Source: Alphaproteobacteria bacterium (GTDB taxonomy: Bacteria > Pseudomonadota > Alphaproteobacteria > UBA2966). Taken from it: a DNA stretch of 64,000 bases. The DNA lies in contig OZ219856.1 of assembly GCA_964291395.2 (NCBI GenBank), positions 672,001 through 736,000 of the forward strand, given 5' to 3'. Positions 7,323 to 61,525 of the stretch are shown one piece after another. The position numbers and the translations under genes were made by a program. The notes under the pieces are model-generated. The model had not been told where the DNA came from. It saw only the letters and a list, made by a program, of their open reading frames with translations, and did not search any database. How positions within the stretch are numbered: the stretch's first letter is position 1; each line of letters starts with the position of its first letter.

Positions 7323-7387
7323 GCTTCGGGCCCCCTTCGCTTCGTGGTCCTCGCCGTCTCAGGCCGGTCAGGCGCGCCGCCGCGGCG

Positions 7388-10884: not shown

Positions 10885-10954
10885 GGATCGTTGAAGGAAA
10901 TCGGTGCCGGACCCGGATGCACGAAACGTGTGGGGTCCGACGCCCTCGTTCCCC

Positions 10955-12502: not shown

Positions 12503-12560
12503 GGCGTGGCCTCCGCTGTTCTATGCTTCGAGTCCGCCCTCGAGGGCGGGTGACGCCGCT

Positions 12561-14623: not shown

Positions 14624-14643
14624 GGCAATTCAGCGGGGTGTCG

Positions 14644-22840: not shown

Positions 22841-22991
22841 TGCGGGCGCCGGTCCGGCGAGGCGTTCATTCAATCGGCCCCGGCGGCGATCCGTCAAGAA
22901 ACCGCATGGCCGTGCGCCGCGCCGCCGGCCTCGTCGCGGGACCTGCCGTGATGTTGAAGCCCTGGCTTTCCGGTCGTCTCCGCCGCGTGCC

Positions 22992-35924: not shown

Positions 35925-36854
35925 TCAGCCGCCGGCCGCCTTCGCGGCCACGATGGCGGCGATGAAGGCGGCGGCCAGACGCGCTTCGGGCGGGTCGGCC
36001 CGCGACGTCAGCACGATCGGCACCCTGGTGCCCATGACCACGCCGGCCGCCGTGGCGCTCATGAAGTAGACCATCTGCTTGAACAGGATGTTGCCGGCCT
36101 CGACGTTGGGCACGACGAGGATATCGGCGTTGCCCGCGACCGGGCTCTCGATGCTCTTCAACCGGGCGGCCTCGGGCGAGACCGCGTTGTCGAAGCCGAA
36201 GGGGCCGTCGACTGCCGCGCCCGTCACCTCGCCGCCGGCCGCGCGCGCGGCGACCTCGGCGGCCTGGACGCTCGACGGCATGCCGGGGTTGACGACCTCG
36301 GCGCCCGAGAGGAGGGCCACGCGGGGCTCCCGGGGGTCGAGGGCCCGGGCCAGCTCGACGGCGTTGTTGACGATGTCGAGCATCTCGTCCGCGTCGGGCC
36401 GGACGTTGACCACCGCATCGGTGACGTGGAGGACGCCGCTGCGGCCCGGAGCCGTCATGTGGAAGACGTGGCTCACGCGCCGGCCGGTGCGCAGGCCCGC
36501 ATCCCGGCGCAGGACCGCGCGCATCAGGGCGTCGGTGTGCACGTGGCCCTTCATGATCGCCGCCGCCTCGCCGCTCCCGGCGAGTGCCGCCGCGGCCTCC
36601 GCCTTCTTCGCCTCGTCCGCCTCCTCGACGATGCGGACCCCGCCGAGGTCCCAGCCCGCGTCCCCCGCGAGGGACCGGATGGCGTCCGCCTCGCCGATCA
36701 GGACGGGTTCGATGGCGCCCGCCTCGGCGGCCCGCCGCGCGCTCGTCAGGGCCACGGGGTGGTCGGCGCCCGCCACGGCCATCGGGACGCGGGGCAGCCC
36801 GCCCGCGAGTTCCATCAGGTATGCGGGGACCTCGAAGGGCTCGGTGCTCAGCAT
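35925..36854 (-). CDS. pta: Phosphate acetyl/butyryltransferase
   Basis: IMKGHVHTD, DGPFGFDNAVS, PNVEAGNILFK, TSRAD; directly downstream of xsc. Confidence 0.88.
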   Translation of the reverse strand: MLSTEPFEVPAYLMELAGGLPRVPMAVAGADHPVALTSARRAAEAGAIEPVLIGEADAIRSLAGDAGWDLGGVRIVEEADEAKKAEAAAALAGSGEAAAIMKGHVHTDALMRAVLRRDAGLRTGRRVSHVFHMTAPGRSGVLHVTDAVVNVRPDADEMLDIVNNAVELARALDPREPRVALLSGAEVVNPGMPSSVQAAEVAARAAGGEVTGAAVDGPFGFDNAVSPEAARLKSIESPVAGNADILVVPNVEAGNILFKQMVYFMSATAAGVVMGTRVPIVLTSRADPPEARLAAAFIAAIVAAKAAGG

Positions 36855-36949: not shown

Positions 36950-38731
36950 CTACGCGCCGACCTGGGGCCGCATGTCGGCCGGGTCGATGCCGGCGACCGC
37001 GACCGGCGCCTTCATCGCGTCGCGGCGGAACGGCTCGCCCAGCTCCTGGTTCAGCACGACCTCGACGAAGGTGGTCTCGTTCCTCTCCATCTGCCCTTCG
37101 ATGGCGTCGGACAGCGCCTCCGTCAGGCCGCCCGTCGTCGTCACCTGAACGCCCTTCAGGCCGCAGGCTTCGGCGATCCCGGCGAACCGCACGTCGAGGT
37201 CGAGCTCGGTGCCGACGAAATTGTCGTCGAACCACAGCGTGGTGTTCCGCTTCTCGGCGCCCCACTGGTAGTTCCGGAAGACGACCATCGTGATCGGCGG
37301 CCACTCGCCCCGCCCGCAGGACGACATCTCGTTCATGGAGATGCCGAAGGCGCCGTCGCCGGCGAAGCCGACCACCGGCACGTCGGGCTTGGCGATCTTC
37401 GCCCCGAGGATCGCCGGGAAGCCGTAGCCGCAGGGGCCGAACAGGCCCGGCGCCAGGTATTTGCGGCCCTTCTCGAAGGTCGGATAGGCGTTGCCGATGG
37501 CGCAGTTGTTGCCGATGTCGGACGAGATGATCGCCTCCCCCGGCAGGGCCGCCTGGATGGCCCGCCATGCCATGCGCGGGCTCATGCGGTCGGGCTGGGC
37601 CGTGCGGGCGCGCTCGTTCCAGGTCGTTCCGGGGTCGTCCTCCTCGTGGTCCATCGAGGAGAGAAGCTGGAGCCAGGCCGACTTCGTCTGCGCGACGAGG
37701 GCCTCGCGTTCCTTGCGCCCCTTGTCGCCGGCCGTGCCGGAGAGCCCGGCGAGGAGCTGCTTCGCGACGGCCTTGGCGTCGCCCTGGATGGCCACGGTTA
37801 CCGGCTTGGTCAGGCCGATCCGGTCGGAATTGATGTCGACCTGGATGAGCTTCGCGTCCCCGGGCCAGTAGTCGATCCCGTAGCCGGGCAGGGTGGAGAA
37901 CGGGTTGAGGCGCGTGCCGAGCGCCAGGACGACGTCGGCCTTCGAAATGAGCTCCATCGCGGCCTTCGAGCCGTTGTAGCCGAGAGGGCCGACCGACAGG
38001 GGGTGGCTGCCCGGGAAGGCGTCGTTGTGCTGGTAGTTGCAGCACACGGGGGCCGACAGCTTCTCCGCGAGCTTTGCCGACGCTTGAATGCCGCCGGACA
38101 GCACGACGCCGGCGCCGTTCAGCATCACGGGGAACTCCGCCTTGGAAAGGAGGTCGGCCGCTTCCTCGATGGCGGCCGTGCCGCCGCGCGGGCGCTCGAG
38201 GCGCACGATCTGCGGCAGGTCGATGTCGATGACCTGCGTCCAGTAGTCGCGCGGCACGTTGATCTGGGCCGGCGCCGACAGCCGGAAGGCGTTCTCGATG
38301 ACGCGGTTCAGCACCTCGGCCATGCGCGAGGGATCGCGGACCTCCTCCTGATAGCAGACCATGTCCTCGAACAGCTTCATCTGCTCGATCTCCTGGAAGC
38401 CGCCCTGGCCGATGGTCTTGTTGGCGGCCTGCGGCGTCACCAGCAGCAGCGGCGTGTGGTTCCAGTACGCGGTCTTCACCGGCGTCACGAAATTGGTGAT
38501 GCCCGGACCGTTCTGCGCGACCATCATGCACATCTTGCCCGAGGCGCGGGTATAGCCGTCGGCCATCATTCCGGCGTTGCATTCGTGCGCGCAGTCCCAG
38601 AACGTGATCCCCGCCGTGGGAAAGAGGTCGGAGATGGGCATCATCGCCGAACCGATGATCCCGAAGGCATGCTCGATACCGTGCATCTGGAGAACCTTCA
38701 CGAAGGCTTCTTCCGTGGTCATTTTCGTCAT
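36950..38731 (-). CDS. xsc: Sulfoacetaldehyde acetyltransferase (ThDP)
   Basis: KMTTEEAFVKVLQMHG, GIIGSAMM, GDGAFGIS, NYQWGAEKRN, ELGEPFRRDAM. Confidence 0.96.
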   Translation of the reverse strand: MTKMTTEEAFVKVLQMHGIEHAFGIIGSAMMPISDLFPTAGITFWDCAHECNAGMMADGYTRASGKMCMMVAQNGPGITNFVTPVKTAYWNHTPLLLVTPQAANKTIGQGGFQEIEQMKLFEDMVCYQEEVRDPSRMAEVLNRVIENAFRLSAPAQINVPRDYWTQVIDIDLPQIVRLERPRGGTAAIEEAADLLSKAEFPVMLNGAGVVLSGGIQASAKLAEKLSAPVCCNYQHNDAFPGSHPLSVGPLGYNGSKAAMELISKADVVLALGTRLNPFSTLPGYGIDYWPGDAKLIQVDINSDRIGLTKPVTVAIQGDAKAVAKQLLAGLSGTAGDKGRKEREALVAQTKSAWLQLLSSMDHEEDDPGTTWNERARTAQPDRMSPRMAWRAIQAALPGEAIISSDIGNNCAIGNAYPTFEKGRKYLAPGLFGPCGYGFPAILGAKIAKPDVPVVGFAGDGAFGISMNEMSSCGRGEWPPITMVVFRNYQWGAEKRNTTLWFDDNFVGTELDLDVRFAGIAEACGLKGVQVTTTGGLTEALSDAIEGQMERNETTFVEVVLNQELGEPFRRDAMKAPVAVAGIDPADMRPQVGA

Positions 38732-38844
38732 GTCTGGAAATCCTCCTTGGCCGCGGCCGCCAGCAGCTTCGACGGTCGTCTTGCCTCGCCGCTTGCGGCG
38801 GATTATTAAGCCATTGCCCCGGCACGGGCAAGTTGGCAGGGTCG

Positions 38845-39513
38845 TCACCGGCCGCCCGGAATCACCCCTTCCATGGGCTTCCAGTCCGGCTGGTTCTCGG
38901 GCATCGAGTCGGCGAAGGCGGGCAGTTCGTTGCAGCGCGCGACGATGTCCAGGATTGTCGGATACGGCGACAGGTCGCAGTCGAACCGTCGGGCGTTGTA
39001 GGTCTGCGGAACCAGGCAGAGGTCGGCCAGCGTGGGCGCGTCGCCGCGGCAGAACACGCCCGGCGACTCCCGCGCCGCGAGCATGCCCTCGAGGCCGCTC
39101 AGGCCGGCGGCGATCCAGTTCCCGTACCAGCCGTCGATGTCCTCCGCCGACGCGCCGATCCGGTCGGCCAGATAGCGCCGCACCCGCCGGCCCATCAGGG
39201 GGTGCATGTCGCTCGCGATGGATTGGGCGAAGCTTCTGACCCAGGCCCGTCCGGCCGAATCGGCCGGGAGCAGGGGCGGCTCGGGATAGACCTCTTCCAG
39301 GTACTCGAGGATGGGCAGGGATTGCGCGACCACGATCCCGCCGTCCTCGAGGATCGGCAGCATCCGCTGGGGATTGAGCGCCTCGAACCAGTCCGCTCGG
39401 TGCTCGTCCTCGACCAGGTTGACGATCACCTGCTCCGCCTCGATTCCCTTTAGTTTCAGCGCGATCCGTACCCGATAGGCCGCGTTCGACATGTAAAAAT
39501 CATAAAACTTCAC
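38845..39513 (-). CDS. maiA: Zeta-class GST (maleylacetoacetate/maleylpyruvate isomerase-like)
   Basis: SNAAYRVRIALKLKG, LNPQRMLP, QSLPILEYLEE, PENQPD. Confidence 0.85.
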   Translation of the reverse strand: MKFYDFYMSNAAYRVRIALKLKGIEAEQVIVNLVEDEHRADWFEALNPQRMLPILEDGGIVVAQSLPILEYLEEVYPEPPLLPADSAGRAWVRSFAQSIASDMHPLMGRRVRRYLADRIGASAEDIDGWYGNWIAAGLSGLEGMLAARESPGVFCRGDAPTLADLCLVPQTYNARRFDCDLSPYPTILDIVARCNELPAFADSMPENQPDWKPMEGVIPGGR

Positions 39514-39619
39514 GGTTCCGCTCCCGGTCGGTATGCTTGGCGCCCATTCACGCGAATCGAGCCCGTCATCATAGTTGCCGGGCGGCGCGGAATCCCCCTG
39601 GAAATCGAAGGGTGCGTTC

Positions 39620-40684
39620 ATGGAATTCGGAATTTTCAACCTGCTCAGCCGCCGGCTGGAGTCGCAGACGATCAACCAGATCGTCGAGGAGGCCGCGGAG
39701 ACGGTCAAGCTGGCGGATCAGGCTGGCTTCACCACGGCCTGGTTCCCGGAGCACCACTACTCGAACTACTCGATCGCGCCGTCACCGCTGATGATGTGCG
39801 CCTTTTGCGCCCCCACCACCCGCCGGATCAAGCTCGGCACGGCCATCGTCATCGGCACGCTCTATCAGCCGGCGCGGCTGCTGTCGGAGGTGGCCTTCGT
39901 CGACGGCATGACCGACGGCCGGCTCGTGCTCGGTTTCGGCAGCGGCTATCAGCCTCACGAGTTCAAGCGTTTCGGCATCGATCTGCAGCACTCGCCGGAC
40001 ATCACGGAAGAGGTGCTGGACATCGTGGAGGGCGGACTCACCAACGACTCCTTCGAGTACCACGGCAAGCATTTCGATTTTCCGCATACCTACATGGCCC
40101 TGCGGCCCGTACAGCCCATGCCGGAAGTCTGGATCGCCGGCAACAACGCCCAGATGCAGCGCCGGGCGGCCCGAAGCGGCTATCCGCTGATCGTCTCGGC
40201 GCTGGTGAAGGACATCGATTTCGTGGCGGGCCTGCGCGAAACGGCGGAGCGGAACTGGAACGACGCGGGCGTCGACCCGGCGAACATGCGGCTCGCCACC
40301 CTTCGCTTCGCCTATGTCACCGACGACCACGGGGACGCCCTGGAATTCGGCGACAGCGCACGGTTCCAGTACCGGCTGGCCCGCAACCTGCGCTTCCGCA
40401 AGGAAGAGCTCGAGGAGGGTCTGTTGCCTGAGGTTCCCTTTGAGGACGAACCGACACTGGAGGAGCTCGTCGCGAACAATCCCATCGGCGATCCGGAAAC
40501 GGTCGCGGAGCGTATCGTCGAGGAAGTGCGCAGGGTCGGCTCGTTCCACATGAGCTTGTACATGCACGTCGGCTCGATGCCGCTCGAGAAGTCGATGCGG
40601 TCGATCGAGCGCTTCGCCGCCGAGGTCATGCCCCTCGTGGAGAAGGAGCTGGACGAACCGGTGACCGCCGCCGCCGCCGAGTAG
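39620..40684 (+). CDS. Luciferase-like (LLM) flavin-dependent oxidoreductase
   Basis: [39 protein letters not shown]. Confidence 0.93.
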
Positions 40685-40728
40685 CGCGAATCAACGGTTT
40701 TCCTTCTCCCGAAGAGGGGAGACGGCAC

Positions 40729-41196
40729 GTGACCGAAACGCTCGATCCCAGCAAGCGGCAGAACATCACCCTGGTGACCGGCGTCATCGGTTCCGATACG
40801 CACATCGTCGGCAACCGCATCCTGTCGATGGCACTGGAAGAGGCGGGGTATTCCATCGTCATCCTCGGCGCCCTGACGCCGGCGGACGAATTCATCAAGG
40901 CCGCCATCGAGACGGCAGCCGACGGCATCATGGTTTCGTCGCTCTATGGCCAGGGCGAGCTCGACTGCCGCGGCTTCAGGGAACTTTGCGTCGAAGCGGG
41001 GCTCGACGACATCCTGCTCTACGTGGGGGGCAACCTCGTCGTGGGCAAGACTCCGTGGGAAGTGGTCGAGAAACGCTTTCTGGACATGGGGTTCGACCGC
41101 GCTTTTCCGCCGGGTACGCGCACCCCGGAGGTCGTCGAGGCCCTGGACAGGGATTTCGCCGCGCGCGCCCGGGGCAAGCGGACCGCCGACTCGTGA
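40729..41196 (+). CDS. mamA: Glutamate-mutase-like cobalamin-binding S subunit (GlmS/MamA type)
   Basis: [12 protein letters not shown] (DxHxxG), [16 protein letters not shown]. Confidence 0.9.
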
Positions 41197-42632
41197 GCGG
41201 AGACGCCGCGGCCGCGCTGCTCATCGACTTCGGCAGCACCTACACCAAACTTCGCGCGATCGACCTGGAGCGAGCCGAGATCATCGGTTCGGGCCAGGGA
41301 CCGTCGACGGTCACGACCGACATCACGGTCGGCATGGAGGCGGCGCTCGCGGACCTGGAAGGCCGCATCGGCGGCCTTCCCGATTTCACGTACCGGCTGG
41401 CGACGTCCAGCGCCGCGGGCGGCCTGCGCATGGTCACCGTGGGGCTGGTCAAGGAGCTGACGGCGGAAGCGGCGCGGGTTGCCGCGCTGGGCGCCGGCGC
41501 CAGGCTGATCGGCACGTACGCCTATCGGTTGACCGCCGGCGACATCGCCGGGATCGAGGGTCACAGTCCCGATATCATCCTGCTCGCCGGCGGCACCGAC
41601 GGCGGCAATGACGAAGTGATTCGGCACAATGCCCGGGTCCTCGCGGAGTGCGGCATCACCTGTCCCGTGGTCGTCGCAGGAAACCGGGAGGCGACGGACG
41701 ACATCTCCGCACGGCTGGACTCGGCGGGAAAGACGGCGGTTCCCACCGAGAACGTCATGCCGGAATTCAACGTGCTCAATATCGAGCCGGCGCGCGCCGC
41801 GATCCGCCGGATCTTCATAGATCGGATCGTCCACGCCAAGGGGATCGATCGGGCGGCGGAGATGTTCGACGAGATCCTCATGCCGACGCCGGAGGCGGTC
41901 ATGGAAGGCGCGCGTCTGCTCGCCGACGGCACCGGCGGGCAGAACGGTCTGGGGCCGCTGCTCGTGGTGGACATCGGGGGCGCGACGACGGACGTGCATT
42001 CGGTGGCGGCCGGGGAGCCGACCCTCGAGGGCGCGATTCAGCGAGGGCTGCCCGAGCCTTACGTCAAGCGCACCGTCGAGGGCGATCTCGGGATGCGCCA
42101 CAACGCTCTCTCCATCGTCGAGGCGGCGGGTCTGGACACCCTGGCCTCGGAAGCCAGGCTGACCGGGGATCGCTTCCGGGAAAATCTGGCAATGATTTCC
42201 GGCGACGTGGAACGGCTGCCGGAGACGGACGAGGAACGGGCGGTCGACCGGGCACTCGCGCGTGCCGCGACCCTCATCGCCGTGCGTCGCCACTCGGGCA
42301 GGACCGAGACCGTCTATACGGCCATGGGGCCGGCGGTCGCTCAACACGGAAAGGATTTGTCCGGCGTGGGGGCCGTCATCGGTACCGGCGGCGCGCTCGT
42401 ACACGGAAACGACCCCGCGGGAATCCTGGCCAAAGCGTGCGCCGATCCGAACGACCCGGAGTCGCTCCGTCCGCGTGCGCCCCGCCTGTATCTGGATCGG
42501 GAATATCTGTTATACGCCTGCGGCTTGCTCGGAACCGTGGAGCCGAAAGCCGCCTTGACCTTGGGCCTCGCCCATATGCATCCTGTCGCCGAGGAGGAAC
42601 ACGGGAATGGCCGAAGTTCTGCCGCCGGATAG
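41193..42632 (+). CDS. glmL: GlmL/MutL-type mutase accessory ATPase (actin fold)
   Basis: [50 protein letters not shown]. Confidence 0.92.
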
Positions 42633-44115
42633 CGTTGCGTCGCCACTGTCCGAAATCCGGATTCCGGATGACGAATTCGCCAGGATGCGCAAGGAGAACC
42701 TGGCGCGCTGGCCGACGGGCGCGGGCGTCGATTTCGATGCCGCGGTCGACTACCACAAGAACCTGCCCATGCATAAACGGCTCGCCTGGGTGATGCGGCG
42801 GGCGGACGCGGAGGGCCGCACGCTTACCCAGCCGCGCGGCGGCTTCGGCACGCTGGAGATGCAGAGGGAACTGATGACCACCCTCGACCGGGAGGGCTTG
42901 GCCGACATCGTTCCGACCACGACGGACAGCTACACGCGAAACGAGCGCTGGGAACAGGCCCAGCACGGCATCGAGGAGTCGAAGCGCCTGGGGCGCTCGA
43001 TGCTGAACGGGTTCCCCATGGTGAACTACGGGGTCGAGGACACCCGGAAGCTGATCGAGGCGATCGACAAGCCCGCCGTCATGTTGACCGGCACCGCGAT
43101 GCCCAAACTGACCGGCGAAGTCGGCTACGCGGCCGGGTATTCGGGATATCTGGGATCAGCCATCGCCTACACGCTCTCCTACACCAAGGAGATCCCGATC
43201 GAGATCGGCATCCGCAACTACCAGTACCTCGACCGGCTGGCGTCGATGTACCTGGAGCACGGGGTCGAACTGCACCGCCGCCAACCGGGATTTCTCACCG
43301 GGACCAACATCCCGCCCTGTATCGCCATCGTCACGGCCGTGTTGGACGTGCTGCTGGCCGCGGCTCAGGGCGTTCGCAATTACGGCCTCGAGCTCGGTCA
43401 GACGTTGCACCTGATCCAGGACGCCGCCGCCATCCGGGTCTGCCGCGAGATGTGCCAGGAGTATCTGACCAGGAAGGGATACGAGGACGCGTTCACGCCG
43501 GTGACGTCGTTGCACTGGATGGGGGCCTGGCCGCACGACGACGCCCAGTCGGCGGCGATCGTCGCATATGGCGGCACGCTCGCGGCGGTGGGCGGCGCCA
43601 TCAGCGTCACCACGAAGAGTCTCCACGAGGCCTTCGGCATCCCGACACCGGAAGCAAACGCCGAAGGCCTGCGCGTCACCCGTATGGCCATCTACATGGC
43701 CCGCAGCATCAAGCTCGACGGTCTGCCCGAATACGAACGGGAGAAGGAAGTCATCCGCAAGGAGGTCCGCGCCGTCGTCGACAAGGTGTTGGAGATGGGT
43801 GACGGAGACGCGGCCGTCGGTACCGTACGAGCCTGCGAAGCCGGCGTGCTCGATATCCCGTGGTCCCCGAGCCGTTCGGTCAAGGGCCGCATCCTTCCGG
43901 CCCGCGATGCCGATGGATACCTGCGCATCTTGAACCCGGGTGACATGCCGTTTCCGAAGGAAGTCCTCGACTATCACGAGGAGCGCTTGCGCAAGCGCGC
44001 CGAGAAGGACGGCATGCCCTACGACCATGAGCTCGCAGTCTCGAGCGTCTACGAGATCTCCGAGCCGCTCCAGGCGCTGGCGCCGTTCCCCTATGTCCAG
44101 GAAGCGGCGGAATAG
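42607..44115 (+). CDS. Glutamate-mutase-like E subunit with altered substrate pocket
   Basis: WPTG, QPRGG, DSYTR, NGFPMVNYG, QYLDRL, HWMG, KSLHEAFGIPT, RDADG align with GlmE; see findings. Confidence 0.9.
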   Translation: MAEVLPPDSVASPLSEIRIPDDEFARMRKENLARWPTGAGVDFDAAVDYHKNLPMHKRLAWVMRRADAEGRTLTQPRGGFGTLEMQRELMTTLDREGLADIVPTTTDSYTRNERWEQAQHGIEESKRLGRSMLNGFPMVNYGVEDTRKLIEAIDKPAVMLTGTAMPKLTGEVGYAAGYSGYLGSAIAYTLSYTKEIPIEIGIRNYQYLDRLASMYLEHGVELHRRQPGFLTGTNIPPCIAIVTAVLDVLLAAAQGVRNYGLELGQTLHLIQDAAAIRVCREMCQEYLTRKGYEDAFTPVTSLHWMGAWPHDDAQSAAIVAYGGTLAAVGGAISVTTKSLHEAFGIPTPEANAEGLRVTRMAIYMARSIKLDGLPEYEREKEVIRKEVRAVVDKVLEMGDGDAAVGTVRACEAGVLDIPWSPSRSVKGRILPARDADGYLRILNPGDMPFPKEVLDYHEERLRKRAEKDGMPYDHELAVSSVYEISEPLQALAPFPYVQEAAE

Positions 44116-44142
44116 TCCGGGGCCTTTTCACGGGAGAATGGG

Positions 44143-44538
44143 ATGAAACGCATGCACGTCGGCCTCGTCGTCGAGGACGTGGCCGCCTCGGTGACGTTCT
44201 ACACGCGTCTCTTCGGCCAGCCGCCGAGCCTGGAAAAACCCGACTACGCCAAGTGGATGCTCGACGACCCGCGGGTCAACTTCTCGATCAACTCGCGCGG
44301 CAGTACGCCGGGCGACGTGCATCTCGGCATCCAGGCCGAGGACGAAGCCGAACTGGGCGAACTGCGCGAGCGCTGGACGGCGACCGGCTCGGAGACCCTG
44401 GACAGGAAGGCGCTCACGTGCGGCTATCAGACCCAGAACAAGACCTGGGTACGCGACCCCGAAGGCATGCGCTGGGAAGCCTTTCACACCTATGCGGTCA
44501 CCGACACGTTCGGCAAGAGCGAGTCGGAAGAGCGGTAA
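44143..44538 (+). CDS. ArsI/CadI-like VOC protein
   Basis: MKRMHV, DYAKWMLDDPRVNFSI, HLGIQ, WVRDPEGMRWEAF; TCGY rather than the usual CCY. Confidence 0.88.
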   Translation: MKRMHVGLVVEDVAASVTFYTRLFGQPPSLEKPDYAKWMLDDPRVNFSINSRGSTPGDVHLGIQAEDEAELGELRERWTATGSETLDRKALTCGYQTQNKTWVRDPEGMRWEAFHTYAVTDTFGKSESEER

Positions 44539-44567
44539 CGGTTCCGCGCTGCAACTCGGCGCCCATG

Positions 44568-44777
44568 CGGAAGGGGAGTTGACCGGCCATGGCCGACAAG
44601 AAAACCGCGCTGGTTCTGGGTGGAACCGGCATGGTCGGACGGAACCTCGTCATGCTGCTCGACACCCTGGACGACTGGGAGGCGATCGCCGTTTCGCGCC
44701 GGGAACCCTATTTCGAAACCAAGGCGCGTCACATCTCCTGCGACATGACGGAGCCCGACGACTGCAGGGCCAAGCTG
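44568..44777 (+). repeat. 210-bp direct repeat, copy 1 (RBS plus 5' end of SDR gene)
   Basis: Identical by eye to 46217-46426; offset 1649 bp. Confidence 0.95.
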
Positions 44778-44795: not shown

Positions 44796-45136
44796 GGTAT
44801 TCACCTACGCCGTGTTCGGCCCACATTTGGTCCTTTACGCGGTGTTCGGCGTTGCTTGCTGCTCAGCCCGATCGTGTTCTGGAGAAACGCCCCTCCTATC
44901 GACCGTATTTGGTCCGGTCCCGGCTTCTGCCTGATCGTGTCACACATGGCCTTGAAGGCTTTACAACGACCTTAAATCAGGCAATTCCGATTATTATTGC
45001 CATAATCTCAACCGCTTGATCGGGCTTCAAATTTCATAAAGTATCGTCAAGTTGTTTCATGCAATTCCATCACGGATTGTGGTGGTGTCGCGCTCCCTTC
45101 GTGGGCGAAACCCGGGAAGGGGGGAAGGGGTGCGAG

Positions 45137-45451
45137 ATGGCCAAGCATATCCGGTGCTACGCCGAGGGCAGAGGTGATGAATGGACCGCGATCTGTCTGA
45201 ACTTCGATATCGCGGTGCAAGGACATTCGTTCGAGGACGTGAAGGAATGCCTTGAGGGCGCAATCGATCTGTTCCTCGAAGGCGTAGCGGAGCTTCCCGC
45301 TAAAGACCGGAACCGTCTCCTGCGTAGATCGGCACCTGTGTCCATGCTGAAGTATTTGCGAGCCGTGGTCTGGTCGTGGATCTTCGGCGACTCGGAGGAT
45401 GGGGAGCAACACCAGCATCACTACACGATGCCGTTTGCCGGCACAGCCTGA
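45137..45451 (+). CDS. HicB-like antitoxin
   Basis: WTAICLNFDIAVQGHSFEDVKECLEGAIDLFLE. Confidence 0.8.
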   Translation: MAKHIRCYAEGRGDEWTAICLNFDIAVQGHSFEDVKECLEGAIDLFLEGVAELPAKDRNRLLRRSAPVSMLKYLRAVVWSWIFGDSEDGEQHQHHYTMPFAGTA

Positions 45452-45457
45452 CCGGCT

Positions 45458-45668
45458 TTAGTCGAAATAAGACTTCGGGAGACCCCTGGCGGATGATCGA
45501 GGGAGTGGCGGGGTGTATATCGTCGCTTTCGCGCGAACAAGCGATAGTCACGAGCCGGACCTTACCGTTGACCACACCACGATAGTTTCTATGGCTTCCC
45601 TTCTGGCGTTTCAACTCGAAACCGTTCCGAAGCAGGACGCGAACGATGTCTCGGAATTTCTTCGTCAT
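45458..45668 (-). pseudogene. HicA-family toxin, frameshifted near C-terminus
   Basis: MTKKFRDIVRVLLRNGFELKRQKGSHRNY; native end GLPKSYFD* is in another frame. Confidence 0.8.
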
Positions 45669-45770
45669 CTGAATGTGGTCGGCGTGCTCACGGAGTCACC
45701 TTGCTCGCACCGAACATGACGCGCACCGCGATTCTGCGCGTCTCTGGCTTTCATCAATCAAATGTAGACA

Positions 45771-45783
45771 AATCAATATGTTG
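45771..45783 (+). promoter_or_regulatory. IHF binding site
   Basis: AATCAATATGTTG exact match to WATCAANNNNTTR in AT-rich islet. Confidence 0.5.
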
Positions 45784-46216
45784 TCATAATCATCCACAGG
45801 TCGGTTCGATTTGTAACTGGATCTTCCCACAAGATTTTGTGTCGACACGACACTTATTTTCCATATTTTGAGGGTGCGCCACTGCTTTGTGCGACTGTGA
45901 GAACGTAGGACGAACACGCCGCCGTACATACGCTGCGTCGATCGACTCGTCCGTCACGTCGTCGAGAACGGCCGTCATCGGTCTCGCCCCGGTCGATGGA
46001 TGCCAGCGGTCCATTTACGCGGGTGTACCAGCGGGTCGAAACGCGAGCTCGGCTTCGGGCGCATCCCGACGGTCGGGGTCACGGCGCGACAAGAGCGCGC
46101 GCGGATGCGATTCGGGACCCTCCCGCCCTGTCGGGCGGAGGAACGCAAGTCGGGAGGATGTCGATAGAAAGCGGAATCGGCGTGCCTGTGATATAAGCCG
46201 GCCGTGTCGTACCGTT

Positions 46217-47307: not shown

Positions 47308-47847
47308 GTGGCGCGAGAGTCCGACAACGGGGGCGAGGGGCAGGCGCTCAGCTATACCGACGTTCTCGATATTCTCGAGATCGTCGACGGCGTCGGCGAG
47401 GGCTGCGAGCTGACCGTCGACGTGGGCGACTTTCATCTGCATTTCGTGAAGGATGCCGCAGGCGGGGCGTCGGCAAGTCCGGAACCGGCGCCCGGGCCCG
47501 AACCTGCGGTTCCCGGACCGCGGGCCGCCGAAACGGAGGAACCGGCACCCACGGAGGCGTCCGAAACGGAGGCCTTTTCGGCCGACGAGCCGGCGGACCC
47601 CAATCTGTTCGAAGTCGAGTCGCCGATGGTCGGGACATTCTATCGTCGTCCGGCTCCGGACCGGCCGCCGTTCGTCGAAATCGGCCAGGACGTGGGACCC
47701 GACGACGCGGTCTGCCTCGTCGAGGTGATGAAACTGTTCAATACCATCGTGGCCGGCCAGGCCGGACGCATCGCCGAAATCTGCGTCGAGGATGCCACGC
47801 CCGTCGCGGTGGGACAGGTCCTCGTCCGCATCGATCCCGCGGACTGA
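47308..47847 (+). CDS. Biotin carboxyl carrier protein
   Basis: Pro/Ala/Glu linker, SPMVGTFYRRP, EVMKLF biotinyl-Lys. Confidence 0.92.
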   Translation: MARESDNGGEGQALSYTDVLDILEIVDGVGEGCELTVDVGDFHLHFVKDAAGGASASPEPAPGPEPAVPGPRAAETEEPAPTEASETEAFSADEPADPNLFEVESPMVGTFYRRPAPDRPPFVEIGQDVGPDDAVCLVEVMKLFNTIVAGQAGRIAEICVEDATPVAVGQVLVRIDPAD

Positions 47848-47869
47848 CCCGGCCGTACCGTATCCTCCC

Positions 47870-49339
47870 GTGAGCCGCGAGATCCCCATCGTCGAAGAAG
47901 CCCTGCGGGATGCCCACCAGTGCCTGTGGTCGACCCGCATGACCAACGAGATGATGCTGCCCATCGTCGAGCGCATGGACGCGGTGGGCTACGACGCGAT
48001 GGACCTGATCGGCGGTGCGGTCTGGGATGTTTCGATCCGCTTTCTGCTGGAGGACCCGTGGGAGCGGATCCGGCACGTTCGCAGGCTCGTGACCAGAACA
48101 CCCCTGAATGCCTGGGTCCGCGGTCAGAGTCTGTGGACCTTCGAGGTCTTTCCGGACGAGGTGGTCGAGCTCGCCATGGAGCGACTGGCGGCGAACGGCA
48201 TTCGGCGGGCCACGATCTACGACCACATCAACGACATGGAGGGTCTCCACGTCGTCGTCGGCAAAGCGGTCGAAGTCGGGCTCGAGGTGTCGGGCGCCCT
48301 GGTCTTCACCTTGAGCCCGGTCCATACGGACGGGCATTTCGCCGAGCGCGCGGCCCAATTCGTCCGGATGGGTGCGACCGAGGTCGTCGTCAAGGACCCG
48401 AGCGGTCTTCTGTCGGTCGAGCGCATCCGAACCCTGGCACCGGCCCTCAAGAAGGCCATCGGTGACGCTGCGCTCAACCTGCACACCCACTGCATGACCG
48501 GCCGCGCCCCCGATGTCCTGCTCGAGTCCGTCGACTACGGGATGGACAAGCTGCACTGCGCGATCTCGCCGCTGGCGCACGGCGCGTCTCATTCGCCCAC
48601 GGAATGGATCGCCGAGAAGCTGGTCGGGAAGGGGTACTCGACACGGCTGGACGCGGAACTTCTCGGCGAGATCGCGGACTATTTCCATTTCGTCGCGCGC
48701 CGCTGGGACAAGCCGGTCGGCGAGCCCGTGCCGTTCGACCCGCGCGTGCTGGAGCACCAGATGCCCGGCGGCATGATCTCCAACCTCGCGAGTCAGCTCG
48801 CGACGGTCGGACTGGAACGCCGCCTGGACGAAGTCCTCGACGAGATGGGCCGGGTGCGCAAGGAACTCGGTTACCTGCCGATCGTCAGCCCTTCGGCCCA
48901 GTTCATCGCCACCCAGTCGGTCCTCAACCTGGTGCAGGGGGAGCGCTACAAGACCATTCCCGACGAGCTGCGGAAGTACATTCTCGGCTACTACGGCCGT
49001 CCGCCGGCGCCGGTCGACCAGAACCTCGTCGACCGCGTGGCCAGGAAGAGCTCCGACGTCGTCACCGGGCCCAGCGGCTCTCACGTTCCCCCGGTGCTCG
49101 ACAAGATCCGCAAGGAGCGGGGTCCCTTCGAGTCGGACGATGACCTGCTGCTCGCCGCGATGTATCCGGACGAGATCATCCGCCCTCTGTTCGAAGCGCG
49201 CGACAAGGCCGACTATTCCGCGTTCTACCGCGCCGACACGCCGGCCGACTACCTCCTGAAGGAGGTCAGGGCCCGTCCAGGGCTGCGGAGCTTCGAGCTC
49301 TCCACGGGGGCCGGTTTCGACGTCGTCTATAGTCACTGA
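47870..49339 (+). CDS. Pyruvate carboxyltransferase-type subunit (PycB/OadA-like, no biotinyl domain)
   Basis: LRDAHQCLWSTRM, EDPWERI, VKDPSG, LHTHC, HQMPGGMISN. Confidence 0.9.
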   Translation: MSREIPIVEEALRDAHQCLWSTRMTNEMMLPIVERMDAVGYDAMDLIGGAVWDVSIRFLLEDPWERIRHVRRLVTRTPLNAWVRGQSLWTFEVFPDEVVELAMERLAANGIRRATIYDHINDMEGLHVVVGKAVEVGLEVSGALVFTLSPVHTDGHFAERAAQFVRMGATEVVVKDPSGLLSVERIRTLAPALKKAIGDAALNLHTHCMTGRAPDVLLESVDYGMDKLHCAISPLAHGASHSPTEWIAEKLVGKGYSTRLDAELLGEIADYFHFVARRWDKPVGEPVPFDPRVLEHQMPGGMISNLASQLATVGLERRLDEVLDEMGRVRKELGYLPIVSPSAQFIATQSVLNLVQGERYKTIPDELRKYILGYYGRPPAPVDQNLVDRVARKSSDVVTGPSGSHVPPVLDKIRKERGPFESDDDLLLAAMYPDEIIRPLFEARDKADYSAFYRADTPADYLLKEVRARPGLRSFELSTGAGFDVVYSH

Positions 49340-50637: not shown

Positions 50638-50883
50638 ACACGAACTTGCTTCGGGGCCATGAGTTCATAGGCGGCACAGGTCAGTCGGGTCGAGAGATGG
50701 ACAACCCTGCGGAGGGTCCGCAGGCGTGCATGGAAGGGGGAAAGGCAGCGGAGAAAGCACCGGAACCGAAGATTGTCGACCGATATCTCGAGTTGCCATG
50801 CGGGAGCTTCGGTCTACGGCAGGACCGCGCAGATTACGATTTTGCTTTTATAACGTGACGAATAATGCGACTTTGTCAGTGTC

Positions 50884-51706
50884 ATGTATGCATCTGCCGC
50901 ACCGCGCGCGCGCAACGTCATCGCCGATCTGGTCGCCGGAGCGGCCGGCATCACTTCACCTCGTCCGAGCTTCGCTCGGCCCTTGGGGTCTCCGAGGCGG
51001 CTGTGCGCCAGGCGCTGAGCCGCCTTGCGGCCAAGGGGGAGATCGCTAGCCCCGCGCGGGGGTTCTACGTCATCGTGCCGCCCGAGTACAGGCGGCTCGG
51101 CTGCCTGCCGGCGGATCAGTTCATACCGTTGCTGATGGAGCACTGGGGCGCTCGCTACTACGTGGGCCTCCTCTCGGCAGCGCAATTTCACGGCGCGGCC
51201 CATCATCGCCCGCAGGAATTCCAGGTGGTGGTGGAGAAGAACCGGCCGGCGATAATTTGCGGGGCCGTCCACGTCGCCTTCGTCGCGCGCCGGAACCTCG
51301 ATGCGGTGCCGGTCGAGACGTTCAACAATCCGCGCGGAACCGTTCTTGTCTCGACCGTGGAAGCGACGGCGGTCGACCTCGTCGGATACTTGCGTCGCTC
51401 CGGAGGCGTGGACCGGGTGGCGGGCATACTTTCCGAGCTCAGCGAGGACATGGACCCGGAGCGTCTCGTCGAGGCTTCGAATTCAGCGTCGATCCTCTGG
51501 GCGCAGCGTCTGGGCTACCGGGATCTGGAGCATGTTGGGGCCGGAGACAGAGCGGTGCTGCTCAAGGAGCATGTGCGGCGGCGCGCGCTACAAACTACAC
51601 GAAGCTGGCGGCTGCCCGGCGCGGGACACCGCGGATGCGCCGTTCGGTCGACAGGACTGCTCAGGCGGGGTTCGTGAACGCAAGCATCGACTGCGCGGAT
51701 GCGTGA
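50884..51706 (+). pseudogene. Type IV TA antitoxin AbiEi family, frameshifted
   Basis: HFTSSE, PARGFYVIVPPEY, YYVGLLSAAQFHGAAHHRPQ, STVEATAVDLV; ATG and C-terminus out of frame. Confidence 0.82.
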
Positions 51707-57184: not shown

Positions 57185-57670
57185 TCACCCCGCGGGGTCG
57201 ATCCACATCAGCGGCTGGCCGGCCTTTACCTGCGCCTCGTTCTCGGCGCAGATCCCGGTGACGGTCCCCGCGACGCCTGCGGGAACGGAGTTGAAGAGCT
57301 TCATCACGTCGACCAGGCACACGGTGTCGCGGGCGTTCACTTCACTGCCCACCTCGACGAAAGGCGGCGCGTCCGGCGAGGGAGCGCGATAGAACGTACC
57401 CGTCATCGGACAGTCGACGCTGACCAGCCCCTCTCGGGGAGGAACCGCGGCCGGTGCCTCCGGAAGTGCCGGCGTCTGTCCGTCGACGGCCGCGGACTCG
57501 GCGGTCCCGGCGGCGACCGTCTTGAGCGGCGGGGATGGTGCCGGCTCGCCGCCCGCCGTCGCGTCCACCTCGAGGAGCACGTCGTCCTGTTCATAGCGAA
57601 AGCGTTGGTAACCGAGTTCGTCCAGCGTGCGCAGAATTTCGATCACGTCCTTGGCCGACAACGCCATCAC
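57185..57670 (-). CDS. Biotin carboxyl carrier protein
   Basis: CPMTGTFYRAPSP, DVMKLF. Confidence 0.92.
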   Translation of the reverse strand: MMALSAKDVIEILRTLDELGYQRFRYEQDDVLLEVDATAGGEPAPSPPLKTVAAGTAESAAVDGQTPALPEAPAAVPPREGLVSVDCPMTGTFYRAPSPDAPPFVEVGSEVNARDTVCLVDVMKLFNSVPAGVAGTVTGICAENEAQVKAGQPLMWIDPAG

Positions 57671-57843
57671 GGGGTCTCCACCGCCGGCTCCGGGAGGGCT
57701 TCCACCGCCGGCCCGTCGGATTCCTTTTCGACACGGATCTCCATATCGCCCTGCGCCAACCTCAGCCTGCCGCGCTGCGGCCCGTCGATGAGCGCGAGGA
57801 TCGTCGCGACGTCACGATAGGTGAGGGGCGCGTCGTCGGACAC
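57667..57843 (-). CDS. Small protein resembling a stand-alone BCCP N-terminal domain
   Basis: LTYRDVATILALIDG...LRLAQGDMEIRVEK parallels LSYTDVLDILEIVDG and LSAKDVIEILRTLDE; overlaps next start. Confidence 0.6.
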   Translation of the reverse strand: MSDDAPLTYRDVATILALIDGPQRGRLRLAQGDMEIRVEKESDGPAVEALPEPAVETP

Positions 57844-57848
57844 GGGAT

Positions 57849-59960
57849 CTACGGTTCCACGGTGAACTTGTAGTCTACGGCCAGGCAGCCTTCGCCGTCG
57901 CCGAGAACCAAGACGGGGTTGAGGTCGAGCTCGGCGATCTCGGGACGGTCGACCGCGAGCCAGGAGACCCGGGCGATCGTTTTCGCCAGCGCCTCGACGT
58001 CGAGGGGGCCGCCGCCCCGGAATCCTCGGAACATGGGGCCGAGGACCGACTCCTCGAGGACGCGTCGGGCCGCCACCTCGCTGACGGGCGCCGGCAGCAT
58101 GTGCACGTCGGCGATGAGTTCCACCAGCGTACCGCCGGGGCCGAAGACGATCATCGGACCGAAAACCGGATCCCGCTTCACGCCGACCAGGACTTCGAGC
58201 CCACCGCCGACCATTTCCTGCACGAGAAGGCCTTCGATGCGGGCGTCCGGGTGGTGCCGCCGGGCATTGGTATTGACCGTATCGCAAGCCACGGCGAGCG
58301 CGTCCTCGCCGCGCACGTCCGTGATGACGCCGCCGATCTCCGTGCGGTGGACGATATCGGGCGAGGCGATCTTCACGGCAACGGGCGAGTCGAGCTCGGC
58401 ACGGAACGCCTCCGCTTCCTGGATGGTCGCCGCGATGATTTCGCGAGGCAAGCGAACGCCATATGCCGCGAGCGCGGCCTTTTGGGCCTCCACCTGATCG
58501 AGCGGCGCGTCACCCGCTGCGCCGGGTCCGACGTCGCGGGCGGGCTTGGGGTCGGCGAGCAGGACGCGGCGTCGTTCGTCATAGACGAGTCGGGCGGCGA
58601 CGTTTCTCGCGGCCCGCGCAGGATCGCTGAACACGGGGAACGGCGCCTTCCGGATCGCCTCCATGGCGTTCTCGTGGGGCGCCACCCAGGACACCGCGAA
58701 CGGCTTGCCGACGTCGGCGCGAAGCCTGGTCAGCTCTTCGACGAGCTCCAGTCCGTTGCGCCAAATGAGTTTCACCGACAACACGGCGGCGTCGTAGTGG
58801 TCGCCTTCGAGGAGAAGCCGGAGGCATTGCGCCAGGATATCTGGCCGAAACACCATCGGCCCGGTCGCGTCCAGCGGGTTGTTGAACCCGGCGTAGTCCG
58901 GAAGGATCTCCGCGACTTTGGCCCGCAGCTCTTCCGGCAACGGTGCGACGTCCAAGCCGGCATCCGTCGCGGCGTCCGCCGCGAGCACACCGGCGCCGCC
59001 GGAATGGGAGACCAGCGCGATGCGCTTCCCCCGGGATGCCGGCGTCTTGTTGAAGACCTTCATGTAGTCGATGAACTGGTCTCCGTCGGCGGCGCGGACG
59101 ACCCCGGTGGCGTCGAACACGGCCTGGGCGACTCCGTCCGAGCCGACCAGGGCCCCGGTATGCGACCGGGCCGCGACCGCGCCGGCATCCGACTTGCCGA
59201 CCTTGAGGACGATCAAGGGCTTGCCCGCCTGCAGCGCCGCCCGAGAGACGTCGATGAAGCCCGCGCCCTTCCGGATGCTCTCGATATAGCCGCCGATGAT
59301 GCCGACCCGATCGTCGTTGATCAGGTATCCGGCGTAGTCGGAGAACTCGAGATCCGCCTCGTTGCCCGAGCTTACGAAGTGCCCCGTGCCAATCCCCTGG
59401 CGCTCGGCCTCGGTGAGGATGGCGGCGCCGACCGCGCCGCTCTGACTCGCCAGCGCGACATTGCCGGGCTCGACGTCCTTGCGGTCCAGGAGCTGGGTGA
59501 TCGAGGGGACGACTCCATTCCACAGGTTGATCGAGCCGACGGAGTTGGGTCCGACGGCGCGGCCCCCCTTGTCGCGGATCAGGTCCATCAGCTCGGATTC
59601 GATGCGCTTGCCTTCCTCGCCCAGTTCTCCGAAGCCCGACGTGATGATGAGGAAGCATTTGACGTGACCGGACTCGAGCGCCTCCACTGTCCGGCGAACG
59701 ACGGTTGCCGGGACCGAGAGCACGGCGAGATCGATCGGATCGGGAATGTCGGCGAGAGATGGAAAACACTTCAGGCCGTTCACCGCCTCGTACTTCGGAT
59801 TCACCGGGTAGATCGTGCCGCCGTATCCGTGGAGGTCGAGGAATCTCAAAATGAGTCCGCCGCCCATGCGGGTTGCGTCTTCGGACGCGCCGACGACGGC
59901 GATCGATTCCGGCTCGAACAGCGCGGCCAGGGCTTGGGTGTCCGGCTCGGCGGTGCTCAT
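57849..59960 (-). CDS. ADP-forming acyl-CoA synthetase (acetate-CoA ligase family)
   Basis: SIAVVGAS, GPNSVG, SQSG, SHTGAL, HRTEIGGV, ELDLNP. Confidence 0.93.
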   Translation of the reverse strand: MSTAEPDTQALAALFEPESIAVVGASEDATRMGGGLILRFLDLHGYGGTIYPVNPKYEAVNGLKCFPSLADIPDPIDLAVLSVPATVVRRTVEALESGHVKCFLIITSGFGELGEEGKRIESELMDLIRDKGGRAVGPNSVGSINLWNGVVPSITQLLDRKDVEPGNVALASQSGAVGAAILTEAERQGIGTGHFVSSGNEADLEFSDYAGYLINDDRVGIIGGYIESIRKGAGFIDVSRAALQAGKPLIVLKVGKSDAGAVAARSHTGALVGSDGVAQAVFDATGVVRAADGDQFIDYMKVFNKTPASRGKRIALVSHSGGAGVLAADAATDAGLDVAPLPEELRAKVAEILPDYAGFNNPLDATGPMVFRPDILAQCLRLLLEGDHYDAAVLSVKLIWRNGLELVEELTRLRADVGKPFAVSWVAPHENAMEAIRKAPFPVFSDPARAARNVAARLVYDERRRVLLADPKPARDVGPGAAGDAPLDQVEAQKAALAAYGVRLPREIIAATIQEAEAFRAELDSPVAVKIASPDIVHRTEIGGVITDVRGEDALAVACDTVNTNARRHHPDARIEGLLVQEMVGGGLEVLVGVKRDPVFGPMIVFGPGGTLVELIADVHMLPAPVSEVAARRVLEESVLGPMFRGFRGGGPLDVEALAKTIARVSWLAVDRPEIAELDLNPVLVLGDGEGCLAVDYKFTVEP

Positions 59961-61462: not shown

Positions 61463-61525
61463 TGGCGAGCCTCCGGATGGCAAGGAACGGCGGCGGATGG
61501 AATTTAGCGGCTCGCCGCCGCTTCG

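Follow-up and report, generated by a model that had tools for sequence, protein, structure and literature searches.

To our knowledge, the GlmE family of adenosylcobalamin (AdoCbl)-dependent enzymes has been associated with a single reaction for about 60 years, that of glutamate (methylaspartate) mutase, EC 5.4.99.1. The passages of PMC9545868 that deal with substrate binding in this enzyme place the glycyl half of glutamate against R66, R149, and E171 and the acrylate half against R100 and Y177, and a listing in PMC2667541 gives 2-methyleneglutarate mutase (EC 5.4.99.4) as a class separate from glutamate mutase. We sought to characterize a GlmE-family operon at positions 40729-44115 of a 64,000-nucleotide stretch of an Alphaproteobacteria genome (assembly GCA_964291395.2, contig OZ219856.1, positions 672,001 to 736,000), hereafter the window. 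The operon would encode the three parts (S, L, and E) of an AdoCbl-dependent radical mutase with its cofactor and adenosyl machinery kept. We hold with moderate confidence that it is a new AdoCbl mutase of organosulfonate catabolism, which belongs to the glutamate mutase family and does not act on glutamate. The three genes are as follows:

40729-41196, plus strand: GlmS-like B12-binding (sigma) subunit (NF002612, 189.9 bits, cut-off 110; TIGR01501, 178.2 bits, cut-off 135.8)
41193-42632, plus strand: GlmL-like accessory protein of the reactivase/chaperone type (NF040745 accessory_GlmL, 587.5 bits, cut-off 475; PF13941, 543 bits; both scored on the full open reading frame, 40986-42632)
42607-44115, plus strand: GlmE-like catalytic (epsilon) subunit, 502 amino acids, with a rewired substrate pocket (L160, T161, L182, S184, R225, P227, L302)

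The GlmE open reading frame (ORF) scored 471 bits against Pfam PF06368 (Met_asp_mut_E) and 463.5 bits against NCBIfam TIGR01503 (cut-off 390.1), and the GlmS-like subunit carries the base-off/His-on motif DTHIVG (DxHxxG) from residue 23. GlmL probably starts at the GTG at 41193, within the overlap with the GlmS stop, and the GlmE start, with a GAGGAGG site ahead of it, precedes the GlmL stop by 26 nt, as if the three genes were translationally coupled. For adenosylcobalamin supply, a PduO-type adenosyltransferase was found in the window's genome (208.6 bits) and a CobA-type enzyme was not. An Rfam scan of the whole window returned no match at gathering thresholds, cobalamin riboswitch included.

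We assessed the substrate pocket by alignment with the known structures. The initial annotation had placed the E subunit on Clostridium GlmE without gaps at an offset of +11, and this was borne out by a phmmer search of the PDB, in which residues 19-485 aligned gap-free to residues 8-474 of the C. cochlearium epsilon chain (1cb7_B = 1ccw = 1i9c; 401.8 bits, E 4.2e-119). The residues that it had listed as kept are all present in the sequence, namely R77, R111, Y188, and Y192 together with K337, H340, and E341 of the KxxHE motif, which correspond to canonical R66, R100, Y177, Y181, K326, H329, and E330. The columns of the adenosyl-contact residues K326 and E330 are both at least 90% conserved over the family alignment. 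Every substitution that it had listed was found as well: R149 is replaced by L160, H150 by T161, E214 by R225, F216 by P227, and H291 by L302, and the segment N170-E171-G172-G173 reads Y181-L182-G183-S184. The arginine claw (R66, R100, and R149) is incomplete, as the position of R149 is Leu160 in the window and Leu in 122 of 122 sequences of the clade described below. The E171 column, Leu182 in the window, is invariantly Leu in that clade and invariantly Glu in 33 canonical sequences. The annotation had described E171 and R149 as contacts of the glycyl half of glutamate, in agreement with what the binding-site passages of PMC9545868 state. As predicted from these residues, the acrylate subsite and the adenosyl cavity are retained, and the migrating group is left with one of its three ligands. 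Through the changes an Arg, a Glu, and a His are lost and three Leu take their place, while an Arg and the small polar residues S184, T/S161, N234, and Y205 are gained, and a pocket altered in this way would suit a smaller, anionic, non-amino group.

An AlphaFold2 model was built from a 130-sequence alignment (mean pLDDT 95.5) and compared with 6h9e_B and 1cb7_B in Foldseek, giving TM scores of 0.93/0.97 and an rmsd of 1.0 Å over 474 columns. The TIM-barrel fold of GlmE is retained in this model, and because the superposition is this close, the residue equivalences do not depend on the sequence alignment alone. Neither the alignment nor the superposition restored an equivalent of Arg149 or Glu171. 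The active sites of TIM barrels are located at the C-terminal ends of the strands, and this is where L160, L182, R225, and L302 are placed, on predicted strands 157-160, 180-182, 223-226, and 299-302.

The initial annotation had proposed a tree to test for a clade sharing L160, L182, and R225, and such a clade was recovered. A word-indexed search listed 120 homologues at 72-99% identity, and all of those with a name are called methylaspartate mutase E. An exhaustive search of 50%-identity representatives returned 950 family members, among which one close full-length sequence was found (P0122, 65% identity; next best 41%). The family alignment held the 239 of 271 collected proteins that were at least 440 amino acids long. 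At thirteen sites, 122 of the 239, including all 120 listed close homologues, read R-R-L-[T/S]-L-Y-Y-R-P-L-K-[H/S]-E, while the canonical R-R-R-H-E-Y-Y-E-F was present in 33 and other patterns in 84. Thirteen positions are fixed differently between the clade and the 33 canonical sequences (R149L, L158T, E171L, G173S, P180S, W194Y, E214R, F216P, L223N, E236D, F297W, F408W, and D469S). In a FastTree of 133 rows, comprising 16 of the 122 clade sequences, the 33 canonical, and the 84 others, the variant clade was monophyletic with an SH-like support of 100 and a stem of 0.41, a lone sister sequence joined it at 94, and the canonical enzymes all fell on one side of a branch.

The same residues were found at the level of gene loci. 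Eighty loci were taken from species-representative genomes, and all 75 called GlmE ORFs among them have L160, L182, R225, P227, and L302 wherever these sites are covered. The full pattern is present in 68 of the 75, and the other seven are truncated or deviate only at the adenosyl-side columns. Because the pattern is fixed across the whole clade, it does not represent chance drift in one gene. The dN/dS of the window GlmE against its five nearest loci is 0.04-0.13, and the clade is under purifying selection; the enzyme is likely functional, as judged from this ratio, the GlmS motif and gene overlaps, the PduO-type adenosyltransferase, and the metatranscriptome contigs described below. Clade members are always accompanied by GlmS (DxHxxG) and GlmL partners. 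Orthologues are present in two isolates, Hyphomicrobium sp. CS1BSMeth3 (locus L075, with TctC at 2807-3760 and the enolase-superfamily gene at 6992-8071) and Pelomicrobium sp. G1 (locus L015). They were encountered in Alpha-, Beta-, and Gammaproteobacteria, Nitrospira, Acidobacteria, Vulcanimicrobiaceae, and a Bacillota metagenome-assembled genome (MAG), from Nitrospira to Burkholderiales and from sponge symbionts, groundwater, and soil. A tblastn search of 72,556 plasmids found no clade member, and the 34 matching records were all below 60% identity. It was noted that a few MAG copies carry likely assembly frameshifts; in locus L071 (9734-11338), GlmE is cut short and departs from the pattern at the K/E adenosyl columns, and one Xsc match in genome G048 contains two in-frame TGA codons.

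The canonical glutamate pathway was then examined through its methylaspartate ammonia-lyase (MAL; C-terminal domain PF07476). No MAL match was found in the window's genome (4.16 Mb in 3 contigs, 98.1% complete). For comparisons at the genome level, 50 clade genomes were hand-picked out of the 80 before any result was seen; one of the 50 has a full-length MAL match (338 bits), and four others have partial matches of 28-31 bits. This distribution agrees with a substrate other than glutamate, and the enzyme is thus predicted not to be part of a glutamate pathway. The claim of the initial annotation that L-glutamate is not the substrate is accordingly supported from three sides, by the pocket, by the clade, and by the near absence of MAL. 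It had offered three suggestions for the true substrate, a non-amino dicarboxylate, an oxo or hydroxy acid, or a sulfonate analogue, and it is the sulfonate suggestion that gains support from the gene neighborhood and genome co-occurrence described next. Since R149, E171, and the MAL partner, each a defining feature of glutamate mutase, are all missing, this GlmE-family protein should not be filed under EC 5.4.99.1, and we infer from the sequence that it would be a new isomerase.

We next considered the genes around the operon. The window holds the following genes related to sulfonate catabolism, together with a glutathione S-transferase (GST)-family gene on the same strand:

36950-38848, minus strand: Xsc, sulfoacetaldehyde acetyltransferase, which carries out thiamine pyrophosphate-dependent desulfonation (TIGR03457, 926.2 bits, cut-off 676.4; NF005713, 1023.6 bits, cut-off 620)
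35925-36854, minus strand: phosphate acyltransferase (Pta-like), downstream of xsc (PF01515; NF006045, 346.7 bits, cut-off 282)
38845-39708, minus strand: GST-family, maleylacetoacetate-isomerase-like protein (maiA-like; TIGR01262, 244.6 bits, cut-off 171; GST_N domains)
14644-16077, minus strand: SauS, acylating sulfoacetaldehyde dehydrogenase, 26 kb upstream of the operon (NF047625, 754.6 bits, cut-off 600)
12621-14623, minus strand: ADP-forming succinyl-CoA-ligase-like pair (beta 13499-14623, alpha approximately 12621-13484), which adjoins SauS and is SauCD/HpfYZ-like by position

The GST gene leads the xsc-pta strand, which is divergent from the mutase operon. The ligase pair scored 350.3 bits against NF001913, below the cut-off of 370, and by tblastn it is 60-62% identical to the SucC/SucD-like genes located beside GlmE at other loci. 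It was also noted that positions 9286-16077 of the minus strand hold, in a run, a GMC (choline-dehydrogenase-like) oxidoreductase, an aldehyde dehydrogenase, and the SucD-like, SucC-like, and SauS genes. This run looks like a module for C2 sulfonates (isethionate, sulfoacetaldehyde, and sulfoacetate), within which an isethionate role for the GMC enzyme is only a guess.

At the genome level, the 50 clade genomes were compared with an even sample of the phylum (301 genomes, the window's genome included). SauS exceeded its curated cut-off in 44/50 clade genomes versus 7/301 of the phylum sample, and Xsc did so in 37/50 (with six further split or partial copies) versus 18/301, figures that are contrasts rather than tests given the kinship of the genomes and the unknown completeness of the MAGs. 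The variant mutase is present in all 50 clade genomes by selection, and within the phylum sample it is found in the window's genome only. Because SauS occurs without the mutase and the mutase rarely occurs without SauS, the mutase seems to supplement the SauS/Xsc desulfonation route.

The neighborhoods of related loci were also examined. ORFs were called and clustered in the 80 loci and in positions 30001-57000 of the window, and tblastn was used to count neighbors in the 41 loci that reach 19 kb or more. A recurring gene order was found, TctC-TctB-TctA, an MDR protein of the quinone-reductase type, an MLE-subgroup enolase-superfamily protein, and GlmS-GlmL-GlmE. The Tct genes encode a tripartite tricarboxylate (TTT) transporter. 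The neighbors were distributed among the 41 long loci as follows:

Enolase-superfamily gene: 29/41
TctC: 21/41
MDR reductase: 20/41
SauS-like acylating aldehyde dehydrogenase: 12/41
Succinate dehydrogenase/fumarate reductase (SDH/FRD)-like subunits: 10-13/41
Xsc: 8/41
Class-I (Fe-S) hydratase alpha subunit: 8/41
Succinyl-CoA-ligase-like subunits: 6/41 each
TauE-family permeases, in two clusters: 4/41 and 3/41
Any of Xsc, SauS, or TauE within 10 kb: 21/41

By our own arithmetic, the chance that a single-copy gene of a 4-Mb genome lies in any one 20-kb segment is about 0.5%. A representative of the SauS-like neighbors scored 776 bits against NF047625 (cut-off 600), and the two permease clusters were assigned to TauE/SafE. 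The enolase-superfamily neighbor is distantly like solved MLE-subgroup enzymes, the best being an L-Ala-D/L-Glu epimerase at 77 bits. Extra ORFs of the compact clusters (PALP, MFS, SNF, BKACE, LysR, and saccharopine-dehydrogenase-like) showed no consistent further partner. In the window's own genome, the mutase lacks adjacent Tct, MDR, and enolase genes, and the nearest enolase homologues are two tandem genes 1.3 Mb off (contig C1, 2052759-2054972 of the genome handled as G000, listed as L081 and L082; 42-44% identity). In a separate observation, five loci (L022, L060, L024, L025, and L034) have an SDH/FRD-like operon (Fe-S subunit, cytochrome b, and flavoprotein) beside the mutase, with a TauE-family permease gene inside it and a class-I Fe-S hydratase alpha subunit also present. 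The SDH/FRD-like set of these loci could be the route from 3-sulfopropanoate through sulfoacrylate to sulfolactate described in a thesis that a passage of PMC11489063 cites.

Two further genes directly flank the mutase genes in the window:

39620-40684, plus strand: luciferase-like (FMN/F420-type) monooxygenase, 44 nt upstream of GlmS (PF00296, 198 bits)
44143-44538, plus strand: small VOC/glyoxalase-fold protein, 131 amino acids, 27 nt after GlmE (PF00903)

The five nearest loci, at 90-93% identity, have the same layout of monooxygenase, S, L, E, and VOC protein. The monooxygenase, whose nearest PDB chains are luciferase-like monooxygenases, has a homologue in 4/81 loci and is restricted to loci of the window type. 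The VOC gene, with a homologue in 5/81 loci, occupies the position where most other loci have the enolase-superfamily gene. Its product scored 108.1 bits against NF041414 (ArsI/CadI), under the cut-off of 116, and its nearest PDB chains (5d4f, 5c4p, and others; 68 bits) are of the ArsI type. As no epimerase is among these chains, a role as epimerase or lyase is an analogy and is only guessed.

Taken with the pocket, this context leads us to favor an AdoCbl mutase of organosulfonate catabolism. Because the half of the site that holds the acrylate carboxylate (R100 and Y177) is kept and the glycyl half (R149, E171, and H150, and also E214, F216, and H291) is rebuilt with Leu/Thr/Leu and the new Arg225, the enzyme would most likely catalyze the same type of 1,2-shift on X-CH2-CH2-COO- with a different migrating group X. 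We infer an active enzyme, a sulfonated carboxylate as its substrate, and a flux connected to sulfite release: the mutase would feed, or be fed by, the SauCD/SauS/Xsc/Pta route. A specific reaction can be put forward tentatively, and we consider it possible though doubtful in its particulars, the interconversion of 3-sulfopropanoate and 2-sulfopropanoate by what would be the first cobalamin-dependent sulfonate-group mutase. The first step would follow glutamate mutase, with R111 and Y188 holding the carboxylate while hydrogen is abstracted from the carbon beside it. Fragmentation would leave an enzyme-bound acrylate in the grip of R111 and Y188, and R77 and the new R225 would hold a sulfite radical anion, for which L160, L182, and L302 would narrow the pocket. 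This radical would then re-add at the other carbon. The sulfonate, moved next to the carboxylate, would make a C3 sulfonate that is a homologue of sulfoacetate, from which the SauCD-like ligase, SauS, Xsc, and Pta would remove sulfite. A racemase (or lyase) role may fall to the enolase-superfamily enzyme, or to the VOC protein in the window, by comparison with methylmalonyl-CoA epimerase and methylmalonyl-CoA mutase.

Some of the literature bears on this proposal. A passage of PMC10413351 reports that SauCD has 20% activity on 3-sulfopropanoate. According to a passage of PMC11489063, 3-sulfopropionate is a fermentation product of sulfoquinovose and 2,3-dihydroxypropane-1-sulfonate (DHPS) whose bacterial degradation was previously unreported, apart from the thesis route via sulfoacrylate and sulfolactate. 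Among the open-access papers searched, none was found that ties the GlmE family or a cobalamin mutase to sulfonates, and none that describes the clade.

Related reactions were considered and set aside. The conversion of 4-sulfobutanoate to 2-methyl-3-sulfopropanoate was rejected because the migrating CH2SO3 radical would lack stabilization. The conversion of 2-sulfoglutarate to 3-methyl-2-sulfosuccinate, an analogue of the glutamate mutase/MAL pair, would leave SauS and Xsc unexplained and was also rejected; we know of no natural source of 2-sulfoglutarate. A shift in 3-nitropropanoate is chemically plausible as a beta-group shift, and the window has a nitronate-monooxygenase-family gene at 21683-22897 (minus strand), beside an ADP-forming acyl-CoA ligase at 19523-21670 (plus strand). 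This candidate was rejected, as no wider association was seen.

Several observations weigh against the sulfonate mutase. The GlmE-like protein still exceeds the NCBI equivalog cut-off for methylaspartate mutase E (TIGR01503), and it is from strand positions only that R225 and the newly gained Ser, Thr, and Asn are predicted to line the pocket. The most conserved neighbors (TTT transporter, MDR, and enolase superfamily) are not sulfonate-specific, Xsc, SauS, and TauE are all absent within 10 kb in 20 of the 41 long loci, and the SDH/FRD-like and class-I hydratase neighbors fit methylsuccinate/mesaconate chemistry equally well. Four of the 50 clade genomes (G006, G031, G035, and G044), of unknown completeness, lack both SauS and Xsc. 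SauS is present in six sampled genomes without the mutase, which makes the mutase at most an add-on to the SauS route. The contrast with the phylum sample could be inflated by shared ecology or co-transfer, and kinship among the genomes means that they do not count as independent. One sponge metatranscriptome library contains contigs that match Pta, Xsc, the GST, the monooxygenase, GlmL, and GlmE at 0-3 mismatches (GlmL and GlmE at 0-2), which is compatible with expression and no proof of it, as such libraries may contain DNA. The uncovered parts of this 15-kb stretch (approximately 45019-46020) are uninformative, as contigs cannot show absence.

The explanation that best survives beside the sulfonate mutase is a mutase for a non-sulfonated C5 (or similar) dicarboxylate, with the sulfonate genes as neighbors by shared regulation or by chance, and we judge it unlikely yet deserving of serious attention. 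Its candidate reactions are 2-hydroxyglutarate to 3-methylmalate, 2-methyleneglutarate to methylitaconate, and glutarate to methylsuccinate, with the enolase-superfamily enzyme as the presumed isomerase or dehydratase and the last steps of a mesaconate/citramalate route left to the SDH/FRD-like and class-I hydratase enzymes. The tricarboxylate type of the transporter, the SDH/FRD-like subunits (10-13/41 long loci) and hydratase alpha subunit (8/41), and the succinyl-CoA-ligase-like genes, which score slightly below the succinate-CoA ligase cut-offs, all fit it. So does the loss of the amino-group ligand E171, which suits an amino-free substrate, and clostridial glutamate mutase turns over 2-hydroxyglutarate slowly. 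However, this explanation leaves the enrichment of SauS (44/50 versus 7/301) and Xsc (37/50 versus 18/301) unaccounted for, along with the TauE genes within clusters (one of them embedded in an SDH-like operon) and the xsc-pta genes that abut the window operon. The loss of R149 would also take away a ligand of the second carboxylate that such diacids still need, unless R225 substitutes for it.

The same sulfonate context, with TauE sulfite/sulfonate permeases nearby, could be read as that of an AdoCbl-dependent eliminase on the glutamate mutase scaffold, which we hold to be improbable. Such an enzyme would abstract a hydrogen beside the carboxylate and then lose sulfite, for example from 3-sulfolactate to give pyruvate or from 3-sulfopropanoate to give acrylate, comparable to ethanolamine ammonia-lyase and diol dehydratase. 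The MDR protein resembles acrylyl-CoA and quinone reductases and could clear the acrylate product, a chemistry that is itself conjectural. Yet an eliminase needs no downstream SauS or Xsc, and these are the tightest associates of the mutase. Ionic enzymes such as SuyAB already perform such sulfite eliminations, and we know of no eliminase precedent in the GlmE family.

That the protein is a true glutamate (methylaspartate) mutase that binds glutamate differently, as the database names say, is very improbable. The TIGR01503 score, the identical fold, and the naming of every named homologue as methylaspartate mutase subunit E speak for it, but the equivalents of R149 and E171 are missing clade-wide, full-length MAL is absent from the window's own genome and from 49 of the 50 clade genomes, the clade sits on a long, fully supported branch apart from the canonical enzymes, and its neighbors do not resemble those found in any glutamate fermentation or methylaspartate cycle. 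It is scarcely credible that the protein is a relic without catalytic activity or serves only in regulation or binding, since the loss of two canonical substrate-binding residues that might suggest this is set against a dN/dS of 0.04-0.13, replacement residues that are invariant over several phyla, and the retention of the adenosyl-contact residues, the GlmS DxHxxG motif, and GlmL.

Other parts of the window and its host were noted. Two sets of a biotin carboxyl carrier protein with a PycB/OadA-type carboxyltransferase are present at approximately 47380-49339 (plus strand) and at 57185-61483 (minus strand), the second adjoining an ADP-forming acyl-CoA synthetase at 57849-59960. An AbiEi-type antitoxin/regulator gene (PF09407, 139.9 bits) lies at 50865-51677 (plus strand) amid catabolic genes. 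The stretch 40700-44600 was found, at the level of at least half of the sampled words, in 15 public runs from many studies, mostly labelled sponge metagenome, so the organism appears to be a recurrent sponge associate.

The diversity of the Met_asp_mut_E family (P0122-P0271) extends beyond this clade. The 84 of 133 tree representatives with neither the canonical nor the variant-clade pocket fall into many well-supported groups with pocket patterns of their own, including S-E and E-S fusions of approximately 630-660 amino acids, and all named sequences among them were automatically called methylaspartate mutase. For ten tree representatives, the cluster members carried automatic 'methylaspartate mutase' names only, with no link to 2-methyleneglutarate mutase. 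Given how many representatives have other pockets, GlmE-like proteins may be a reservoir of unknown B12 isomerases. The variant clade itself is large and environmentally widespread, with a rebuilt substrate pocket under the uniform database name of methylaspartate mutase. If the link to sulfonates is true, cobalamin radical chemistry would be added to the sulfur cycle and could explain aerobic consumption of C3 sulfonates, and the specific reaction, if true, would supply the aerobic route for 3-sulfopropionate that has so far been missing.

We finally compared the locus with the known systems. The isethionate sulfite-lyase IseG/IslA, the glycyl-radical enzyme that performs the C-S cleaving step according to a passage of PMC10413351, is likewise a radical enzyme of C-S chemistry in sulfonate catabolism; however, it belongs to an unrelated, oxygen-sensitive family and is an eliminase rather than a B12 mutase. 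The SauCD/SauS/Xsc and HpfX/HpfYZ routes resemble the window and many related loci in having SauS, succinyl-CoA-ligase-like pairs, and Xsc with Pta, but the passages of PMC10413351 and PMC11489063 on these routes mention no cobalamin enzyme. By description only, 2-methyleneglutarate mutase is also an AdoCbl carbon-skeleton mutase, which acts on a free, amino-free C5 dicarboxylate. Methylmalonyl-CoA mutase and its epimerase share the proposed logic, in which a 2- and a 3-substituted propanoate are interconverted and a small enzyme exchanges the alpha proton. Methylmalonyl-CoA epimerase has the VOC fold, and a VOC gene directly follows GlmE in the window. The mutase chains are distant fold matches of the model (TM approximately 0.5), but they represent a different family with CoA thioester substrates and a migrating acyl group, and the VOC protein of the window is nearest to the ArsI/CadI type and not to the epimerase. 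The closest described system remains the GlmE/GlmS/GlmL glutamate mutase of C. cochlearium (1CCW, 1I9C, and 6H9E), with which the window shares a gapless alignment at 40% identity, an rmsd of 1.0 Å, the residues R66, R100, Y177, Y181, K326, and E330, a separate DxHxxG S subunit, and GlmL. It is set apart from that enzyme by R149L, H150T/S, E171L, G173S, E214R, F216P, H291L, and six further fixed differences, and by a variant clade that has, in place of a MAL partner, a TTT transporter, an MDR protein, an MLE-type enolase, and sulfonate genes for neighbors.

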